Source: Verrucomicrobiota bacterium
GTDB taxonomy: Bacteria > Verrucomicrobiota > Verrucomicrobiia > Opitutales > Cerasicoccaceae
Assembly: GCA_039818205.1 (NCBI GenBank)
Contig: JBCBUK010000001.1
Span: 1 to 64,000 of the forward strand
Length of the DNA stretch: 64,000 nucleotides
Direction: 5' to 3'
In this document: positions 2,463 to 14,193 of the stretch, piece by piece
How the letters are laid out: each line of letters starts with the position of its first letter
How positions within the stretch are numbered: the stretch's first letter is position 1
Position numbers and translations under genes: made by a program
The notes under the pieces: generated by a model
Databases searched by the model: none
The model's input: only the letters and a program-made list of their open reading frames with translations
Told to the model about the DNA's origin: nothing

Positions 2463-3533
2463 TTAAACGGTCTCGGCTGCCTCTGGCCGCGCTACCTTCA
2501 CGCGGTCGTCGCTAACAAGGTCGTTTGCGATACAGTCGAGAATGATGTTGCACGTTGCGGAAATGTGCGCCCAGTGAGACAGCCCGCTTTCCGGGTCAAT
2601 GTCTTCGCCGCCGTTCACCGCGTTAATGTGTCGCATGACGGCTGCGGTGTACGTGGTAAGGTCTACCCGTGCGCATGATGTTCGCCAATTATAGGGGCCG
2701 TATTTTAAAGCGCCTGATTGGGCCGCATTGGCCGTTTCTTCGAGAAAGGCAGGGGATAGCAAGTGCATGGGTGTCTTAGCGTCACCTGCGCTTTTTTTTG
2801 GGTCTACGTTTGCCCCTGGCTCGGCGGTAAGGGTGATCTTTGCGAATGCCTCGCGCGTTTCAGGCTTCGCGGGCTCTTGTGGTAGGAAATATCCCTCTGG
2901 CTTGTCGGTGCGGTATGTCTCCGCCTCCCTGAAGGTGAAGCCATAAAAACGCCCCCACCTCTCTTCACGACTAATAAAAACTTCCGCAGCATGCCACTTT
3001 GTCGGCTTCTTTATAAAGTCAATCTCCGCCTTCGTCCATAGCCGCCAGCCATCAGAAACACCGACTTGCTCTACTGCCAGCTTGTCCGGGTTGTGCCCCT
3101 TGGCGATTGGGGAGACCTTGCGGGCGTAAGCGTGGATACCTGGGAATTCCTTGTAGGTGACTTCAGCAACCCAATTTTCGCAACGCAACATGTCATCCCA
3201 TCCTCCACTAGAATAGAATAGAAAGTGTCCCTCGGGCCCAGACATTTCCTCCCCCTCTGGCACGATCTCGTAACCTTCTGGCGGTTCGATCTTCTTGCCT
3301 TCGGCATCGTAGCCGTATGGGTGTTCGAATAAATATTGAGCATAGGTCGTAACCCTGAAATGCAGCCCCTTTACAAAGCCTTGTTGACATTCCTGATATA
3401 CAACAAGAGCCCCGCCATTGGCGGCTTCAGCGACGAAGATACGCCGATTCCAGTTTTCGTCATCCCCAGCCCGGACCCAGGCCCATTTGACTGGGTCTCC
3501 GTTAAATCGTTTTGTTGGTTTTTCTACGCTCAT
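2463..3533 (-). CDS. Multidomain phage protein with C-terminal dATP/dGTP diphosphohydrolase-type (DUF5664) domain
   Basis: GALKYGPYNWR...AVMRH...GEDIDPESGLSHWAH motif. Confidence 0.8.
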   Translation of the reverse strand: MSVEKPTKRFNGDPVKWAWVRAGDDENWNRRIFVAEAANGGALVVYQECQQGFVKGLHFRVTTYAQYLFEHPYGYDAEGKKIEPPEGYEIVPEGEEMSGPEGHFLFYSSGGWDDMLRCENWVAEVTYKEFPGIHAYARKVSPIAKGHNPDKLAVEQVGVSDGWRLWTKAEIDFIKKPTKWHAAEVFISREERWGRFYGFTFREAETYRTDKPEGYFLPQEPAKPETREAFAKITLTAEPGANVDPKKSAGDAKTPMHLLSPAFLEETANAAQSGALKYGPYNWRTSCARVDLTTYTAAVMRHINAVNGGEDIDPESGLSHWAHISATCNIILDCIANDLVSDDRVKVARPEAAETV

Positions 3534-4996: not shown

Positions 4997-5337
4997 ACCG
5001 TTCTTCCATGTTGAAATTGACACACCACCGAGGAGTGCTCGCGCAGACTGCGGCGCGGCACCCGGCGGACCACTTGCTGGCCGAAAAAGATCGTCGCCGT
5101 AAAAAGACCGACACAAACGATCACTCTGACAACCTCGCCCGAGTTCGCTAAGGCCTTCACAGCATAGTCACGGGTAATCACCCGCCCCGACTGGATCGCC
5201 TCCTCCAGAAGCACTTTCAAATACGTACTCTTGGAGACATCACCCTCAGTCGCCAATTGCCCCAATCGCGCATCCGCCCGATCCCGAATATTCGCCGTCC
5301 GGTTAACCGTCTTAAAGCCTAGCGGATTAGTTGCCAT
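4993..5337 (-). CDS. RHH-type protein with hydrophobic C-terminal segment (CII-position gene)
   Basis: NRTANIRDRADARLGQLATEGDVSKSTYLKVLLEEAI is RHH-like; VIVCVGLFTATIFF is hydrophobic. Confidence 0.65.
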   Translation of the reverse strand: MATNPLGFKTVNRTANIRDRADARLGQLATEGDVSKSTYLKVLLEEAIQSGRVITRDYAVKALANSGEVVRVIVCVGLFTATIFFGQQVVRRVPRRSLREHSSVVCQFQHGRTV

Positions 5338-5533
5338 CGGTCGTTTCGTTTGTTTTTAAGGATTTTTCAGACTCAGTTGGCAAAAGTTGGCAACCTAGGT
5401 CATCAAAAATAAGGTCATTAATATAAGCAGACAGACTGCGGCGCTTGAGGTAAGCGTGTCGCCTTGCAGCCGCCAACAAATGTGGCTCAAACGACACCCC
5501 CTGCGATATTTTCTTAGATTTTTTCCCGCTCAT
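5327..5533 (-). CDS. Small RHH regulator (Cro-position)
   Basis: SQGVSFEPHLLAAARRHAYLKRRSLSAYINDLIFDDLG; first gene of leftward operon. Confidence 0.75.
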   Translation of the reverse strand: MSGKKSKKISQGVSFEPHLLAAARRHAYLKRRSLSAYINDLIFDDLGCQLLPTESEKSLKTNETTDGN

Positions 5534-5606
5534 TTCTTAATAAGTTGCCAACTTGTGCCAGCCCTTGCAAGAAAAAAACTCGAAAATATTGCCAACTACT
5601 GCCAGC
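5376..5606. promoter_or_regulatory. Three operator-like boxes TTGCCAACT-NN-TGCCARC
   Basis: 5545-5562 (+), 5589-5606 (+), 5376-5393 (-). Confidence 0.65.
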
Positions 5607-5616
5607 ATTGAAAACC

Positions 5617-6180
5617 GTGACTGATCAAACTGCTAAAAAACGGAGGAAACCAACCCAGGGCATTAGCTTTCCCGATGTCGACCTCCTAGAACGCGCCAAA
5701 CTGCGCGCTAAGAGCATGCGGCTCTCACTCTCTCAATACATCAACCATTTGGTTGCCCGGGATCTTGGCTCTCCTAGCATCTTTGAGCATATTCCCATGC
5801 AGGCACCTCCAGCCAAACCCGCCCACGCCGAGTCCAATGAATCGGACCCTTACTTACTTCCGCAATCCTATGTCAAATTTGAAAGCTACCGCCTGCCGGG
5901 TGAGAAGCTTCAGGAGTTTAGGAAGCGACTGCGAGAAGAAGAAACCCCCTCCAGCATTGCAGAGAAGTGGAACATCCCCGAGACCTTGGCGGCCAAGCTA
6001 CTTACCAACCCCAAGACCCCGGACGAATACTCTTGCACGATACCGCAGTTAATGCGGCGCAACCAATTGACCCGCGAGGAGGCCTTAGAATTCTATAATT
6101 CCCTCCGAAAGAATGCCGAAGTATTCGACCGTAACACCAAGGCCCTAGGGGAAGAAAAAGCGAGTGCCCAGCCCTCATAG
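5617..6180 (+). CDS. RHH-domain putative prophage repressor (CI-position)
   Basis: TQGISFPDVDLLERAKLRAKSMRLSLSQYINHLVARDLG, paralogous to 5327..5533; GTG 5617 preferred over TTG 5545. Confidence 0.75.
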   Translation: MTDQTAKKRRKPTQGISFPDVDLLERAKLRAKSMRLSLSQYINHLVARDLGSPSIFEHIPMQAPPAKPAHAESNESDPYLLPQSYVKFESYRLPGEKLQEFRKRLREEETPSSIAEKWNIPETLAAKLLTNPKTPDEYSCTIPQLMRRNQLTREEALEFYNSLRKNAEVFDRNTKALGEEKASAQPS

Positions 6181-6223
6181 GCTGGACACTCCTAATCCAA
6201 CTTTTCACAAAAACACCAACAAA

Positions 6224-6343
6224 TCAAAACCCGGAGGGCCAAGAAGGCCAAACCGCAGTCGAAACCGCCGCCATTTTTTTCTTTGAGCGGAAGCCCAGGT
6301 TGTATGATACGAGGTGAGCGATACTCATTATTGTCTTAATCAT
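6224..6343 (-). CDS. 39-aa peptide downstream of sensor kinase (not in ORF track)
   Basis: MIKTIMSIAHLVSYNLGFRSKKKMAAVSTAVWPSWPSGF; 25 bp after kinase stop; A/C-rich leader like other genes in this genome. Confidence 0.55.
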   Translation of the reverse strand: MIKTIMSIAHLVSYNLGFRSKKKMAAVSTAVWPSWPSGF

Positions 6344-6368
6344 CGTTTTGGTTTTGTTGATGTTGATG

Positions 6369-9300
6369 TTACTTCCCGATCCGCACTGGGACCGAAAATG
6401 GTATTTTCACGCGAAACAGGGCACCTCCAATCTTGCTATCTTCAAGGCTTAGATCACCACTTAGGGCCTCAACCATTTTTGCGCAGACATAAAGGCCAAT
6501 GCCCGAACCCCCTTGTTCCTTGCGGGTCGAGTAGAATGGCTCAAAGATCTTTCCTCGATCTCCATTCGGAACGGGCGGACCATCGTTTTCGATCGTGAAT
6601 TCAAAATAGCCACCGTCTTTGTGCCCATGAACCGTTGTTAGGTCGCATCTAATCAACGAATTGCAGTGTTGAAATGCGTTTAATGAAAGCTGAACCAGTA
6701 TCTGCAAAACCTTCTCGCGGTCGATCAAGACTACGTCCGCTTCGATTTGCTCGATCTTGTATGGGAAGTCAAACTTCACGCGGTCGAAACCCTCTCGATC
6801 GCGCAGTATATCGTAAAGCTCTTGAGCTAAAGAATGAACGTTGGTTTCTTTCTCATCATTTTCGATTTTTCCATATTCGATGTCCGGTATTAGGAAAACA
6901 CCATTAAGCATGGTCTGAATAAATGACAGAGACTTCTTCGTTCGCTTTATGTAGGGACGAGCCCTTGGCGGGAGGTCATCAATTCGTTCGAGCTTGTTTA
7001 GCGATAGTTTAGCCGAATCAATCGGCGCGCGCGCTTCATGCCTGACCAATTGAAAGCTTCGGGCGGCTGACTGAATGGCCAACTGAACTTGCTCTTCTTG
7101 GTCTTCTACCTCTGACATTGCGCGGCGGTACCGACCCATTAGCGTCATGCGGCCAAGCCAGAAAAGAGCGGCAAGCAAGACAATTAGCACCGAGTACTTA
7201 ATTGCCAAAAACCAAGTTGTCATATGCCATGGACGACTGATTTCAAATCCGACGGTTGCAACCTCACTAGCCCCGAGGCCCGGAACTATCGTTTGAATTT
7301 CGAATTCATAAGAGCCCGGACTCAGCGAGTAATAATCGACAGCGCTTATATTGGCCGATTCGGCCCAATCTCCCCCAGGTAATAAGCGCGTGCGGTAAAT
7401 GAGGTTTCCCTGTTCAAACCCAGTTGATACAGAGAACTCGATATTTAAGCGACTTGCCGGGTGCTCAAAAACTAGATTCGATAAGGTTTTATATTTTTCG
7501 CCATCAACACCAACTGATCGCACCAGTGGCATTGGTACTGCGACATCGGACTCGGGGTCTACGACAACAATACTACGACCTCCAAGCCAAAGACGCTCTG
7601 TAGTCTCGTCAAAATGGATAATCCTAACTGGCGCAGCTAGGTCGAAATATTTAGACACAAAGTCCCTCCTGTGAAAACTCGAACCTTCAAGCTCCAGCCG
7701 GACGGCTTTTGATCCGACAAGCTGCTCGCCGTAGCGATTTGGGAGCAGTAACCACACTATGTTGTCTTTCGCGGTTAGTAGACTCTCATACCAATGACCC
7801 ATCTCATCGCTCGTAAACACATCGCGAAATTGAAAAGAGTTCACCGCAGTGTCATAGCTAAAAAGCCCTACCGACGACAGGACAAATAACGACGATCCAA
7901 TTTTAAACGGGCGAGCCCAAGACGCTTTCTTCCCGGAGGGGGACACCAGGTCATATCGAACCACCGACACGTTTGTTAGATCGATTGGAATCTCGCCGGT
8001 ATGCGTCAGTCGCCAAAGTGACATGTTATTTGTGCCGAACCAAAGGTCAACCGACGGGCCGCTTTCAAAATCGGCATGATTGTAGAACTCAACCAAGTTG
8101 TCGGCATACAGCCAATATGCACCGGTTCGACTACTTTCCAAGACCACGCCATCTGAGTCAGCCCTAAGCAAGAAGATCCCCTTTCGGCCAAGGGCAATAA
8201 TCGCACCAGGGTCACTTTCCAAGAGGGTCAATGTTCCTGATTGGTAGTCCCAATCAGCGACCCGACGAAACTCATCACCATCAAAGAGCCTAATATTCGT
8301 CTCTGTTAGCATGAGGCTACCGCCAGGGACTGCAACCGCGTCCCAAACCTCGGCATCCGTATCCAGCCGGCTCCAATCTCCATCTTCATGGATCAGAAGT
8401 CCTGACTTTGTCGAAATAACTTTTTTGTCTTCGGAACCCGAGATCGCCCAAGCTAGCTCATTGACAATAGTTAAATCGGGCAGGAAGTAAAACAAGCCGC
8501 CGCCCCAAGTGCTAACCCAGTAGCCGCCGTCACTAGCCGCCTCAATCGAAAGAAGCCTTTTTCCGTCAAATAAATCAGCTGAAAATGTCTGTTTAATCGA
8601 AAACTCACTGTCCAACTCAACAACGCCAGAGGGGGTTTGAGCCAAATACCCATCATTGTGGCGCACGACGCGCCAAACTTGATTTTTAACATTATAGCTA
8701 GCAATTTCCTCAATATCGTCTCCCGACTTAAAACGGTAAACCTTACCTTGTAGTGAAAACGCCAAGAAGCCGCTTCCATCTGGAATTACAGTCATGATTC
8801 CTGAGTCAAGCTTGCTCTCGGGGACAATAAGCTTCGGCCCACTCTGGCTCCCTAGCGTCCATTTGAGGAGCCCGCCATCAGGATGACGCTGGTGGATGTA
8901 AACCTCACTACCGACCCTATTTGGGATCAATCTACGGGAGTTCTCGAAATCCTCGTAATCAAGTCCGCCCTCCCCGCTTAGGCTATTATCGTCCCCCCAA
9001 TAAAGAACCTGACTGGCGACGATCAAGAATCGGCTCGAATCGCCATATAGGCCCCATACATCCTCACTAATTGGCCGCTTGGTCGGTATTCCAGCCAGTG
9101 ACCTATAGCTGAGATTTCCGTTTGCAAGGTCGGGCTCTATAATGCCAACGTCGCCGTAGCTACCGACCAAAACACGACCATCGCTTAGGAAGTCGAGAGA
9201 TTGCGCTGGACTTCCTAGCGCAATCAATTCCCAGCGGTGGCCGTCGAAAATCGCTACACCGCCAGACGCCGCCGCCCAGAGCCGACCGTCTGGGCGCTCA

Positions 9301-9419
9301 TAAACCCTTTGAACGCCCATCAGGAATGGAAATTCCTCTGGGGAGTAGTGCCTAACATACGGCGCACTGAATGCGACTCCTAGGGCAGAAAAGTAAATTA
9401 AGCAAAGCAGCCGATACAT
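6369..9419 (-). CDS. Sensor histidine kinase with periplasmic beta-propeller/Y_Y_Y region
   Basis: Signal peptide, propeller-like repeats, YYSLSPGSYEF (Y_Y_Y), TM, H-box RHEARAP, NDGPPV, IFEPFYST, GSGIGL. Confidence 0.92.
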   Translation of the reverse strand: MYRLLCLIYFSALGVAFSAPYVRHYSPEEFPFLMGVQRVYERPDGRLWAAASGGVAIFDGHRWELIALGSPAQSLDFLSDGRVLVGSYGDVGIIEPDLANGNLSYRSLAGIPTKRPISEDVWGLYGDSSRFLIVASQVLYWGDDNSLSGEGGLDYEDFENSRRLIPNRVGSEVYIHQRHPDGGLLKWTLGSQSGPKLIVPESKLDSGIMTVIPDGSGFLAFSLQGKVYRFKSGDDIEEIASYNVKNQVWRVVRHNDGYLAQTPSGVVELDSEFSIKQTFSADLFDGKRLLSIEAASDGGYWVSTWGGGLFYFLPDLTIVNELAWAISGSEDKKVISTKSGLLIHEDGDWSRLDTDAEVWDAVAVPGGSLMLTETNIRLFDGDEFRRVADWDYQSGTLTLLESDPGAIIALGRKGIFLLRADSDGVVLESSRTGAYWLYADNLVEFYNHADFESGPSVDLWFGTNNMSLWRLTHTGEIPIDLTNVSVVRYDLVSPSGKKASWARPFKIGSSLFVLSSVGLFSYDTAVNSFQFRDVFTSDEMGHWYESLLTAKDNIVWLLLPNRYGEQLVGSKAVRLELEGSSFHRRDFVSKYFDLAAPVRIIHFDETTERLWLGGRSIVVVDPESDVAVPMPLVRSVGVDGEKYKTLSNLVFEHPASRLNIEFSVSTGFEQGNLIYRTRLLPGGDWAESANISAVDYYSLSPGSYEFEIQTIVPGLGASEVATVGFEISRPWHMTTWFLAIKYSVLIVLLAALFWLGRMTLMGRYRRAMSEVEDQEEQVQLAIQSAARSFQLVRHEARAPIDSAKLSLNKLERIDDLPPRARPYIKRTKKSLSFIQTMLNGVFLIPDIEYGKIENDEKETNVHSLAQELYDILRDREGFDRVKFDFPYKIEQIEADVVLIDREKVLQILVQLSLNAFQHCNSLIRCDLTTVHGHKDGGYFEFTIENDGPPVPNGDRGKIFEPFYSTRKEQGGSGIGLYVCAKMVEALSGDLSLEDSKIGGALFRVKIPFSVPVRIGK

Positions 9420-9793
9420 TCCCTCAACTCCTCTTCAAGCCTATCTAAATCACAAATCTTACTTTTGTCCCAATGGGCTTTGAAGCCGCTCTCAAGTAAC
9501 CGATCGACGATTCTCCGATCCAAGCCGCTGGACATGCTCACAAATGTCGGTAGCTCCTCAATGATTCCCTCGGCGTAGCGATTTCGAGCTTGCCCATATA
9601 GTCGCGCTCCGGTCTGCCCATTGGGTAGGTTGTAATCAGTGACTACTGCGTCAAACCTAGATTCTGTCAGCGAGCCGAGAGCATCGTCAACCGAGCGCGC
9701 TGTCATGCACTCGTGGCCTTCAAAGCTCCTCTCGAACACGAATTCAAAACCATCTCGCCATTCAATGTCGTCATCGACCACTAAGATCCTCAT
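9398..9793 (-). CDS. Single-domain response regulator (receiver only)
   Basis: ILVVDDD, VVTDYNLP, conserved Ser and Lys; no output domain; overlaps kinase start. Confidence 0.9.
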   Translation of the reverse strand: MRILVVDDDIEWRDGFEFVFERSFEGHECMTARSVDDALGSLTESRFDAVVTDYNLPNGQTGARLYGQARNRYAEGIIEELPTFVSMSSGLDRRIVDRLLESGFKAHWDKSKICDLDRLEEELRECIGCFA

Positions 9794-9894
9794 CCTGGCA
9801 ACGATGCGCTAATCTCGCGATTATTTCACGAATCAAATCCGAGAAAAAGCCAGCCAATTTGAGGGGACGTTATCATTGCCCCGTATCATGCCGT

Positions 9895-9975
9895 AGGCTA
9901 CTGTCTCCGCGCGTCGTTTGGGGACGGCGTGCCTTAACATTGCTTAACCCTCGGCCTTCGGGCCGGGGGTTTTTG
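9895..9975 (+). ncRNA. Candidate small structured RNA ending in an intrinsic terminator
   Basis: Stem 9909-9917/9924-9932 and stem 9946-9971 with C(UUCG)G loop; G-U pairs form only on + strand; no + strand gene upstream. Confidence 0.4.
9946..9974 (+). terminator. Intrinsic terminator (probably also ends the minus-strand 9976..10764 transcript)
   Basis: AACCCTCGGCC-TTCG-GGCCGGGGGTT-TTT. Confidence 0.8.
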
Positions 9976-10764
9976 CTATTCAATCGTGTAAGAGATTTTC
10001 AATGTGCTCGTCGTGTTCGTGGCATCAGAGCAATAGGCGGTGAATGTCGACCGCTGACCCGGTGCCAAACTCTTGCGATCAAGGTATGTACTAGCGTTGC
10101 CCAAATACTTAGCATTGGCATCCGAAAGAACGATATCAATTTTCGCTAGCTTCAACGTCTTCGCCGAATTGTTCACCACGACGCCTTCGATCTTGATGTT
10201 ATCGCCGCCATAGTTGTCCCATTTCCAATTCTCAATCAATGGCTTACCCTTACCCTCGCCCGCCTTTGGTTCTGCGGGGGCCTTCTTCGCGGGCGCGTCC
10301 TTGAACATGTTAGCCTTGATTCGCATGGGCTTTCCGCCGAAATCATCCAATTCCGTCAAACCGGCTTTTTCTGCAGAGTATACCCAGGCTGTCACCTGGA
10401 CACGCTTCCATTCTCCCCGCTCCTCTATGACCTTTGAATCAATATCGGTCCATAGGACACCGCGAAGATTCCCACCGGGCTTGTTAGACATCACAAACGA
10501 CCCCGTGACCGTCTCTGCGTCACCATCAGGCACCGAGCCGCTACCCTCCCAGGCCTCGATGTATTTGAAATCAGAGTTGGAGAAATCGCCTAGAAACTCC
10601 GTAATTTCGGTTCCATCCTCCTTAACGACCTTCGCCTTGATTCCGTCAGTCCATGTGAGCGTTCCGACAAACTGCCCATGTTTCCGAGATTCCCACATGC
10701 GCGATTCAGCAACCGCCAATCCAGGCAGAACGAACGCGAGAGCAATAATAAGTAAGGCTTTCAT
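9976..10764 (-). CDS. Secreted protein, N-terminal SHD1-like and C-terminal FxLYD-like domains
   Basis: Signal peptide; SRMWESRKHGQFVG...FSNSDFKYI; IEGVVVNNS...IVLSDANAKYLG...LAPGQRSTF. Confidence 0.7.
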   Translation of the reverse strand: MKALLIIALAFVLPGLAVAESRMWESRKHGQFVGTLTWTDGIKAKVVKEDGTEITEFLGDFSNSDFKYIEAWEGSGSVPDGDAETVTGSFVMSNKPGGNLRGVLWTDIDSKVIEERGEWKRVQVTAWVYSAEKAGLTELDDFGGKPMRIKANMFKDAPAKKAPAEPKAGEGKGKPLIENWKWDNYGGDNIKIEGVVVNNSAKTLKLAKIDIVLSDANAKYLGNASTYLDRKSLAPGQRSTFTAYCSDATNTTSTLKISYTIE

Positions 10765-10830: not shown

Positions 10831-11988
10831 TCACGCCCCACCCGGCCGCGGCAGTCGAGCCAGCACGGCGGAAACATGCTCTAACTGCGCATGCGTGTAT
10901 CCTCGCGATACAACCTTTGACTCGTGACCAACGATCCGCATGCGGTCTGTCTCAGTGGCTCCGGCCACATTCAAAGCCGTATTGAGCGTGTGCCGGAGGC
11001 TATGGAATGAATACGGCTTCACATTGCGCCCCCCACCCTCGCGGCGAGCCTGCGCCGTCTCAAAGCCCGCCTCGGGCAAAATCATGTCCACAAACTTAGC
11101 CGAAACCCAGTGAGGCGATTTATACTCGGACAGCCGGGGAAACAACAAATCGAAGCCGTTCCGGCAGCGCCAACAGATCAAATGCCGCCGGAGGTAGGGA
11201 TGAATCGGCACGTCAAAATCAAACTCATCGCGGTTTTTACCCCGGCGGAAGTGGATAACACCCCGCTCAAGATCAATTTGCGACCACGCCAGGCCCAAAC
11301 AATCCTTGAGCCGCTGGCCAGTGTACAATCCCACCAATACGAGCAAACGCCATTCGCCCGGCGGGCACGCCCTCAAAATGCGGCCGATCTCCGGCCAAGT
11401 AAACGGGCGCTTGGCCTCACGCTCATTCTTGCGGCGACGCGGCGCCTTGACCTCGGCGACCGGATTCTCAGTCAGCCGCCCCTGAGCCACCGCCTCACCA
11501 TACCACATGCGCAAGGTGTTCAGGTGAAAGGAAATCGTCTTGCTGGCTAGCCCATCCTCGGCCCGCTGGTCGCGATAAGCCGCGATCGTGCTACTATCGA
11601 CCATCGCCATGGGTTTATCCGCCAAAGCGCCCAGGAAGTCCAAATACTGCCGCACCAGGGCCGTGTATTTACGAACCGTCGCCGCGGCCAGACCTCGCGA
11701 CCAAATCGGCAAGTTCCGCTCAAGAAAAACGCGGGTCGTCATGCTGTCCATCAAAACGGACTCGCCGGCCGTCGACATGATCTCATCCACGATCGCCAGG
11801 GCCCGCTGACGGTTCAAGGTCCCATCCCGGGCTTGTTTTGAGGCTTGCTCGAGTCTCAAAGCGATCCGCATTGCCTCATACCGGTCATCCGTACCGGCCG
11901 ATATTTGTTTACGCCGACCATCCGGCAGCGTATAACACGCTACCCAGTTTTTTGAGTTCCTCGAACGCGATCGCTTAACACTCGCCAC
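10831..11988 (-). CDS. Tyrosine recombinase / phage integrase
   Basis: Catalytic R (GQRLKD), K, HSLRH, VGH, Y (GYTH); arm-binding N-terminus; GTG 11988 likely start. Confidence 0.95.
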   Translation of the reverse strand: MASVKRSRSRNSKNWVACYTLPDGRRKQISAGTDDRYEAMRIALRLEQASKQARDGTLNRQRALAIVDEIMSTAGESVLMDSMTTRVFLERNLPIWSRGLAAATVRKYTALVRQYLDFLGALADKPMAMVDSSTIAAYRDQRAEDGLASKTISFHLNTLRMWYGEAVAQGRLTENPVAEVKAPRRRKNEREAKRPFTWPEIGRILRACPPGEWRLLVLVGLYTGQRLKDCLGLAWSQIDLERGVIHFRRGKNRDEFDFDVPIHPYLRRHLICWRCRNGFDLLFPRLSEYKSPHWVSAKFVDMILPEAGFETAQARREGGGRNVKPYSFHSLRHTLNTALNVAGATETDRMRIVGHESKVVSRGYTHAQLEHVSAVLARLPRPGGA

Positions 11989-12005
11989 GAAATCCAAGGA
12001 AACAA

Positions 12006-12024
12006 TGCACACAGACTGCACACA
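12006..12024 (+). repeat. TGCACACA direct repeat, candidate integrase arm-type site
   Basis: Copies at 12006-12013 and 12017-12024, between int and att core. Confidence 0.45.
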
Positions 12025-12134
12025 AGACAAATTTCTCCAACCATACAGTAATACAAAACGACCCTCAATTTGCCGATTCCCAATCCAAACAAGTGCATAA
12101 TCCTATGACTTGCAGCTATTTACACCGCTCCGAG

Positions 12135-12154
12135 GAACCCAGTTACTCCCACCA
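12135..12154 (+). other. att core: displaced tRNA 3' end (probably tRNA-Val)
   Basis: GAACCCAGT-TACTCCC-ACCA = T-loop/T-stem, acceptor strand, discriminator A and CCA; no 5' half present. Confidence 0.75.
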
Positions 12155-12163
12155 AGAAAATTT

Positions 12164-13377: not shown

Positions 13378-14193
13378 TTAAGAAGCGATACTCACCGCTT
13401 TATCTGCCCCGCTTGTCGGGGCTTTTTTTGTGCTCTGGCGGAAGATGCTCTCGACGCAGTTGCGGACAAACTGTTCATCGGAGACGCCAAACGAGACTTC
13501 CTCCGGAAAGTTCGCGAGCGACTTAATCTCTTCGGCCAGCTCACGAAATAGCTTTACCCGGGCATCCGCATCCAGACTCTGGCGACGCAGCAACGCCTGA
13601 AACGCCAAGGACGCGAGTTCCGAGCTCACCCGCTGCCGGAGGATCGCTTCCATATGTGGATGCTCTCTAAGCGAGTTGTATTTATTCTCCGTTAAACGAG
13701 AGAAATCGGGTGGAGAAACTGATTTCTGGCGAATGACCACCGTACCAGCGGCAATGTCCCCGAGGCGTTGTGATTTTCGGCTGAATACACTCACCGTTCC
13801 ACCCAGGAAATAAAGGAACGGCAAACTATCCACAAATCGAAGCAAGTTACGCAAAATGATTTGATCCGTTTGAAGTCGCAATCCCTGCGCATCAACCACT
13901 CGAATATTGAACACGCGCTTCCCAAATGTTTGCCCCCTCCAGAGCCATTCGCAGAACAGAAAGTAGCCAATAGTGATCACAAAAATGCCAATGATCATGA
14001 GTATGTTGGCGAGATCCGCCGACAATACGCCAGCAATTGAGGCGATCATCCCGATGAGATAGACGATTCCGTAGACGATCACGAGGTCGAGGGTCAGCGC
14101 CAAGAAACGCGTTACTGGACTCGCAAGAGTCATCGTAAAACGGACCCCCTCCGGCGTCTCAATAATCAGCAAATGGTCTCGGGAAAAACTCAT
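13378..14193 (-). CDS. RDD family membrane protein
   Basis: RFLALTLD, GQTFGKR, RNLLRFVD, QRLGDIAAGT. Confidence 0.92.
   Translation of the reverse strand: MSFSRDHLLIIETPEGVRFTMTLASPVTRFLALTLDLVIVYGIVYLIGMIASIAGVLSADLANILMIIGIFVITIGYFLFCEWLWRGQTFGKRVFNIRVVDAQGLRLQTDQIILRNLLRFVDSLPFLYFLGGTVSVFSRKSQRLGDIAAGTVVIRQKSVSPPDFSRLTENKYNSLREHPHMEAILRQRVSSELASLAFQALLRRQSLDADARVKLFRELAEEIKSLANFPEEVSFGVSDEQFVRNCVESIFRQSTKKAPTSGADKAVSIAS

Follow-up and report, generated by a model that had tools for sequence, protein, structure and literature searches.

A receiver-kinase-peptide unit recurring in prophages of a diderm marine bacterium and its likely part in phage peptide signaling

Can a prophage in a diderm bacterium carry a peptide-signaling circuit of its own? 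The question is raised by a 64,000-nucleotide stretch from a Verrucomicrobiota bacterium of the family Cerasicoccaceae (GenBank assembly GCA_039818205.1, contig JBCBUK010000001.1, positions 1 to 64,000; hereafter the window, which is the start of contig C1 of this assembly, G000), where a single-domain receiver, a sensor histidine kinase, and a 39-aa open reading frame (ORF) stand in a row within a prophage. An earlier note on this DNA, made from its letters only, had read the three genes as a candidate phage signaling module converging on the repressor. We observe that this module is real, selected, and recurring, and that it would represent phage-borne peptide signaling built from parts not found in known systems. 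Sequence comparisons point to at least five prophages whose choice between dormancy and lysis likely involves producing and detecting a host-type peptide.

All three ORFs lie where the earlier note had placed them (Table 1), the receiver and kinase ORFs overlapping by 22 nt and the peptide ORF starting 25 nt beyond the kinase stop codon. The 39-aa ORF proves to be a genuine gene under purifying selection, and the conservation of a short ORF downstream of the kinase is confirmed: homologs lie 3' of the kinase in four other prophage regions, and the proportion of nonsynonymous differences (pN) is below that of synonymous differences (pS) in 36/36 pairs among nine 39-aa copies (e.g., C13 versus host, pS 0.67 and pN 0.11), with three peptides, longer or of 40 aa, omitted since they needed gaps. 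Common to 12 distinct peptides are a Y-N-x-G motif in the leader and an 8-residue core, of which position 3 is Ser or Thr and position 6 is Ser, Thr, or Cys in all 12; Ser3 and Ser6 of the window core are thus predicted modification sites. What had been described as a repeated WPS end is one allele of this core, with no repeat feature. The A/C-rich stretch ahead of the peptide was correctly described, and similar A/C-rich leaders precede host and other phage copies. The hairpin that ends the unit overlaps the stop codon of the converging repressor gene, and hairpins are found 3' of the peptide in C29, C30, and C33 as well.

How widely does the arrangement recur? The order of kinase, peptide, and converging repressor is seen in 5/5 prophage regions with continuous DNA (contigs C1, C13, C29, C30, and C33), so the reported convergence on the repressor holds in every one. 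C1, C13, and C29 are complete, with the receiver upstream of and overlapping the kinase in all three; C44 carries an integrase, a receiver, and a kinase start at the contig end, and C28 breaks off within the repressor tail. The kinase stop and peptide start overlap as TAATG in C13 and C29, an instance of translational coupling. The phage kinases are 22 to 49% identical to one another, and that of the window is 22 to 25% identical to the other four and 21% identical to a host hybrid kinase introduced below. A kinase search across 41 genomes returned its three best matches from this same assembly.

Two alternatives can be weighed on this recurrence. If the module were passive or decaying cargo without a current role, the frame break in the C30 kinase (L015:19149-19258), which lies near a short inverted repeat by the end of the contig and is either a lesion or an assembly error, would fit; however, frames and catalytic motifs are intact in C1, C13, and C29, and synonymous sites are saturated while residues are conserved, which makes decay very improbable. 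Superinfection control or prophage competition would have the module sense the peptides of rival phages and block or pre-empt them, not count hosts. One population holds five or more related phages of three peptide types, and kinase groups follow peptide types (C13 and C29 at 49% identity, C30 and C33 at 42%, and C1 alone). Against this, there are three groups only, linkage by itself would yield the same pattern, and the cores of C1, C13, and C29 are one residue apart, so that we regard competition as a distinctly improbable function.

The peptide itself is a version of a host chromosomal peptide gene, not a phage-private one, and host and phage signals therefore probably overlap. A peptide profile matches 6 of 401 genomes of the order, with seven copies in this assembly. 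Against every other 31-residue leader, that of the window is identical at 10 to 13 of 31 positions, with hosts equally distant, and its core agrees with the two host alleles of this assembly at 6/8 and 7/8 positions versus 2 to 4 of 8 for six peptides from five other genomes. The first of these host alleles lies in a chromosomal locus (G000:C3:249453-258062; L018) that comprises a hybrid propeller kinase, the peptide, a YcaO-like gene, a TonB-dependent receptor, and a LuxR-type regulator; the 1,311-aa hybrid kinase stands head-to-head with a 39-aa peptide ORF, followed by a 306-aa gene. The second is found on C54 (L036), an 894-bp contig holding a host kinase start and peptide whose DNA is 76% identical to C3, and may be a second dialect in the same sample or a product of strain mixture. 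Because of this second allele, and since the source run is labeled as a marine metagenome, the assembly probably mixes strains, and its prophages need not share one cell.

Taken by itself, the host locus is a candidate peptide quorum circuit of a diderm. A palindromic box whose spacer is 4 to 5 bp long lies some 30 bp ahead of the host peptide start in 5/6 genomes (C3:253379-253398; L020, L021, L022, and L024); it is a candidate site for the LuxR-type regulator that would give positive feedback. The box with this spacer was not found in the phage module; a zero-spacer near-match at window position 9809 is a weak lead, the matrix having been trained on host sites. In another genome (G008), a second, orphan peptide gene (L080:8823-8960) lies beside a TonB receptor and a regulator, with no kinase or YcaO gene nearby and outside any prophage.

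Does the host supply a processing enzyme? The earlier note had seen none; the host chromosome carries a candidate, a YcaO-fold gene directly downstream of the host peptide. Its 306-aa product (C3:253650-254570), modeled by AlphaFold at a predicted local distance difference test score (pLDDT) of 91, has a YcaO fold: VIA gives Z scores of 17.6 to McbD (root mean square deviation, 4.0; 264 residues aligned) and 15.1 to a cyanobactin heterocyclase, the top five rows are all YcaO (Z, 11.9 to 17.6) with the next unrelated row at 5.4, and Foldseek agrees (E, 9e-7). Weak Pfam YcaO matches are seen in 20 of 23 relatives (E < 0.01), whereas the genome-wide YcaO family search missed the host protein and searches of PDB sequences returned nothing significant. 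The gene is present as a single copy in the assembly, with none in a prophage, and YcaO-like genes occur in 31 of 401 genomes of the phylum, those listed all belonging to the same order. An E1-like partner, oxidase, protease, or exporter was not seen in the host YcaO locus. The protein is a candidate peptide processing enzyme. Besides cyclizing Ser, Thr, and Cys, YcaO enzymes are able to form amidines or thioamides or to cut peptides; given these several chemistries, azoline formation is the likeliest, though not the sole possible, reaction.

Precursors beside other YcaO-like genes also qualify the claim that the peptide has no canonical Sec h-region. In this genus no clear h-region is found and the amphipathic signal is marginal (p, 0.01 to 0.31), but in other families short ORFs upstream of the YcaO-like gene often have, by eye, hydrophobic signal-like N termini and Cys/Ser/Thr-rich ends. 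One precursor, upstream of L130:8794 in genome G010, combines a signal-like N terminus with three tandem copies of one related Cys-containing core. These observations bear on a reading in which the peptide is an unmodified small modulator that binds the kinase in the envelope, as MgrB and SafA reportedly do, the kinase itself sensing another cue, for example glycans or stress on the envelope. In its favor, glycan binding is known for propeller/Y_Y_Y sensors of Bacteroidetes, the peptide is translationally coupled to the kinase in C13 and C29, and the h-region is indistinct. Such a modulator would not explain why host copies lie directly upstream of a YcaO-fold gene, why Ser, Thr, and Cys exchange freely at one core position, or why a related precursor has triple cores, and we consider it unlikely.

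Turning to reception, the receiver is indeed a lone one, with Response_reg as its sole domain and no DNA-binding domain. Both proteins carry the residues expected of a two-component pair. In the receiver these are the acidic pocket (D7-D9), the phospho-acceptor D53, S88, and K110; in the kinase, H794 and the boxes customarily named N, G1, F, and G2 at 911, 944, 958, and 971. The 1,016-aa kinase has no receiver domain itself. It opens with an N-terminal hydrophobic segment and has one membrane helix at about residues 733 to 762, which places about 715 residues outside and agrees with the roughly 700-aa periplasmic region described earlier. HATPase_c scores above the Pfam cut-off, Y_Y_Y and Reg_prop are weak, and HisKA gives no score.

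Upstream of the receiver, a noncoding element some 185 bp long is conserved in C13 (93% identity) and in C29 (87% over 116 bp), although the flanking genes differ. It is likely the promoter region and possibly encodes an antisense small RNA. A promoter scan was at chance level (5 observed versus 6.6 expected), and Rfam returned nothing at the gathering score, with four weak rows, none at 9790-9975 close to that score. Its part at window positions 9860-9975, conserved also in C13 and C29, ends in a hairpin that resembles a terminator for the strand not used by the module; the word AATTTGAGGG in this part is also found near the host kinase start in two relatives, which may be chance.

On what would the receiver act? 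The converging gene at 5617-6180 is probably the phage repressor, since it stands opposite a Cro-like ribbon-helix-helix (RHH) gene, four 8-bp motifs surround the two starts, and homologs match PHROG repressor families (C13, C30, and C28); the C29 homolog matches Pfam RHH_1. The opposite gene would be Cro-like in role. Of six matches of the 8-bp motif in the 64-kb window, four fall within these 220 bp, the window-wide chance mean being 2.45. An all-helical C-terminal domain is common to all five converging repressors and to the truncated one in C28, behind three differing front ends: RHH alone (C1, C29, and C33), RHH-like plus S24 peptidase (C13), or helix-turn-helix plus S24 (C30 and C28). 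The six matches to this domain in the assembly are all prophage repressors and no other protein, and among 1.84 billion sequence representatives there are seven matches, namely the six repressors of this assembly and one unrelated repeat protein. Fold searches gave no Foldseek match at E ≤ 0.001, a best VIA Z of 2.8, and atlas rows under the bar. The domain is absent from two module-less prophage regulatory regions, C22/C23 and C11. What links it to the receiver is co-occurrence alone, a pattern inflated by recent DNA common to C13, C29, and C28; a predicted complex of receiver and domain scored 0.00 against a mark of 0.32, which counts neither way. The S24 peptidase is missing in three of the six repressors with this domain, and for those a non-SOS trigger would be needed.

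The repressor domain also bears on a reading in which the phage switch is not the target: the peptide would mimic or jam the host signal, and the receiver would act as a phosphate sink or as a relay feeding the hybrid kinase and LuxR-type regulator of the host. In keeping with such host manipulation, phage cores follow the host dialect, C13 and C29 have Ser where the C3 host allele has Cys, the slot between integrase and repressor holds variable cargo, and the agr cassette of phage phiCDHM1 has been proposed to signal to a host regulator (PMC4124054). It leaves unexplained, however, why all five converging repressors should carry a fused domain not known from any other source, and why each phage retains its own 3-kb kinase. 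Manipulation of the host therefore seems to us a rather unlikely account of the module.

Instead, we see roughly an even chance that the receiver-kinase-peptide unit is a phage peptide-signaling circuit that relies on host maturation and acts on the phage's own lysis-lysogeny switch. In such a circuit, the unit would be expressed in the lysogen, and the host's single YcaO-fold enzyme would recognize the peptide leader and convert core Ser3 and Ser6, most likely to oxazolines. The released core would return to the periplasm via the TonB-dependent receptor of the host locus, where the phage kinase would bind the phage peptide or the near-identical host peptide and set the phosphorylation of D53. 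The receiver would then act on the extra C-terminal domain of the repressor. Each of these steps, along with export of the peptide, is inferred. Because the phage adds its own peptide, we favor a direction in which high signal, meaning many lysogens or kin, would tell the phage to stay dormant; the sequence itself gives no direction.

Several observations weigh against this circuit. The module was found in this assembly only, which means that its five copies do not count as independent. The peptides of C13 and C29 are identical but their kinases only 49% so, and this DNA block is shared; recombination may therefore account in part for peptide and repressor tail occurring together; furthermore, the module-less control regions number only two. 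On the processing side, the host YcaO protein scores 23.2 bits with Pfam against a cut-off of 25.7, and no exporter or leader peptidase was identified. In kinase trees from quick IQ-TREE and FastTree runs, the five phage kinases form one group (support, 82 and 91) apart from those of the host genus (99 and 100), and they are not firmly nested among YcaO-linked kinases (support, 62), the nearest neighbor changing between runs.

With this separate grouping, recent capture of the kinase from this host is rejected on both trees, and the phage kinases represent an old phage lineage whose peptides are kept in step with the host. A profile built on the five phage sensor regions nevertheless finds the C3 host kinase as its best nonphage match in the assembly (E, 6e-26; next, 4.5e-4), and of the 20 best matches that it has in 400 other genomes, 15 adjoin a YcaO-like gene, four do not, and one lies at a contig end. 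None of 20 wider loci around kinase matches looked prophage-like by eye, and a module search of 15 genomes of the family gave three marginal matches (E about 0.004). Viral contigs searched with kinase, repressor-domain, and receiver alignments contained no module, the four receiver matches being ordinary regulators; 5/5 matches of the peptide pattern in viral contigs were out of frame, and metagenome contigs gave no module match.

How does the module compare with known systems? The nearest precedent is the agrD-agrB-agrC cassette of the Clostridioides difficile phage phiCDHM1 (PMC4124054, PMC7790227), with arbitrium and VP882 as functional analogs. Like that cassette as described, the module places a host-derived precursor and a membrane histidine kinase, both homologous to host genes, together on the lysogeny side, with no DNA-binding response regulator. 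Unlike it, the host is diderm, the kinase is a propeller/Y_Y_Y protein with one membrane helix after a 715-aa region and not a polytopic AgrC, the processing candidate is a host YcaO-fold enzyme and not phage-carried, and there are a single-domain receiver and a dedicated repressor domain of its own. Membership in Agr is rejected on the kinase, which is not polytopic, and on the lack of an AgrB (PF04647) match in the assembly, the latter from a weakly controlled search whose control was positive in only 1 of 14 genomes and there below the cut-off.

In arbitrium (AimP, AimR, and AimX of Bacillus phages; PMC7790227), too, the precursor is encoded by the phage; here its short C-terminal portion, a conserved 8-aa core, would be what informs the lysis-lysogeny choice. 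Some repressors here also keep an SOS-type peptidase, which resembles the double input, SOS and peptide, reported for phi3T (PMC12768286). By contrast, the candidate receptor here is a periplasmic kinase and not a cytoplasmic transcription factor, and the peptide is one that the host shares and that is predicted to undergo modification. The earlier statement that the module does not belong to arbitrium is upheld: no tetratricopeptide repeat (TPR) or AimR-type family is present among the 21 scanned ORFs, so that the cytoplasmic RRNPP/TPR receptor is missing, and the adjacent receptor is a membrane kinase. With VqmA-Qtip of VP882 (PMC7790227) the module shares a Gram-negative host, a phage receptor related to the host's, and a predicted output in which a small protein would inactivate or control the repressor; it differs in that the candidate peptide signal is phage-encoded too, in using a putative transmembrane phosphorelay and not a LuxR-type receptor, and in that no Qtip-like gene was identified and no LuxR/VqmA family is present among the scanned ORFs.

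Finally, pathways for ribosomally synthesized and posttranslationally modified peptides (RiPPs) that use YcaO enzymes, such as microcin B17 McbD and the cyanobactin heterocyclases, share the fold, a leader-core precursor with Ser/Thr/Cys, and, in one relative, repeated cores. Here, unlike there, the enzyme has about 300 aa and is wired to a kinase, a TonB receptor, and a regulator, and its precursors are borrowed by phages. A literature search, conducted mostly without subscription papers, found no paper whose title or opening abstract lines describe this module or the host circuit. It is a tentative proposal, on the doubtful side of possible, that the module represents a new class of phage communication with parts unrelated to arbitrium or Agr: RiPP precursors matured by host YcaO, a pool of host and phage peptide sensed in the periplasm by the phages' own propeller kinases, a phosphorylated single-domain receiver binding a dedicated repressor domain, and dialects.

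The prophage location of the module, as the earlier note had it, is well founded. We observe an integrase, an attachment-site core, phage genes, and an empty site in relatives, and conclude that the element is integrated at tRNA-Val with the module inside the prophage. The core matches the 3' end of the intact tRNA-Val(GAC) at C8:222831-222907, near the end of contig C8; in 3/5 relatives this tRNA gene is within 2 kb of an RDD gene, and an RDD gene is present at window position 13378. The three genes do lie between integrase and switch, with the addition that an FxLYD gene also stands between integrase and receiver. That gene occupies a variable cargo slot outside the conserved module, filled by other genes in C13, C29, and C44. 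To the left of the module, 4 of 12 scanned genes match PHROG families; phage genes at 82-990 and 2463-3533 give matches to a topoisomerase family of PHROG and to a dATP/dGTP diphosphohydrolase domain, and structural genes would lie beyond the contig end. Contig depths in run X1 are uneven over the element and carry no weight here. The assembly as a whole is unusually rich in temperate elements, with 12 Phage_integrase matches and several related prophage contigs. We further note seven tRNA genes in about 1 kb on G000:C16 (L017:13079-14107), possibly on a mobile element, and a long low-complexity repeat at G000:C33:4839-5585 that is present too as contig C64.

Table 1. Coordinates of features of the module and its surroundings, in window positions
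Feature	Position	Strand	Basis
Cro-like ribbon-helix-helix gene	5327..5533	-	39% identical to repressor; divergent from repressor, heads early-gene cluster
8-bp motif, four copies at 5376, 5386, 5545, 5589	5376..5596		Candidate operator half-sites
Repressor-like gene, 187 aa (P0013)	5617..6180	+	RHH-type N terminus, no S24 peptidase, shared C-terminal domain
All-helical C-terminal repressor domain, about 90 aa	5842..6120	+	AlphaFold pLDDT 83
Terminator-like hairpin ending the receiver-kinase-peptide unit	6162..6191	-	13 pairs, 8 G-C, T-tail
Peptide precursor, 39 aa: leader of about 31 aa containing YNxG, then 8-aa core	6224..6343	-	12 distinct homologs aligned
Core octapeptide WPSWPSGF	6227..6250	-	Ser at core positions 3 and 6
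A/C-rich leader without Shine-Dalgarno motif	6344..6368	-	A/C at 24/28 nt
Sensor histidine kinase, 1,016 aa	6369..9419	-	Export signal, propeller/Y_Y_Y periplasmic region, one membrane helix, H794, HATPase
Single-domain receiver, 131 aa	9398..9793	-	Pfam Response_reg above cut-off, no second domain
Conserved noncoding element upstream of receiver	9790..9975		Hairpin at its end, 9946-9971
Secreted FxLYD-domain protein	9976..10764	-	NCBIfam NF038353 above cut-off
Tyrosine integrase	10831..12030	-	Pfam PF00589 and phrog_1
Attachment-site core, right prophage boundary	12138..12160	+	23-bp copy of 3' end of tRNA-Val(GAC)

Peptide-guided phage decisions found in print comprise arbitrium and, as a proposal, the phiCDHM1 cassette, all in Gram-positive hosts. 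The module described here adds a testable case in a diderm marine bacterium for which a candidate ligand sequence, modifying enzyme, importer, receptor, and target domain can all be named. Three named Cerasicoccus genomes show the host peptide pattern, and the host circuit may therefore be testable in cultured strains. If the proposed circuit is true, it would provide a route of prophage induction that does not depend on SOS, show YcaO peptides acting as signals, and give a function to lone phage receivers, and its peptide dialects would let related phages talk to or past each other.

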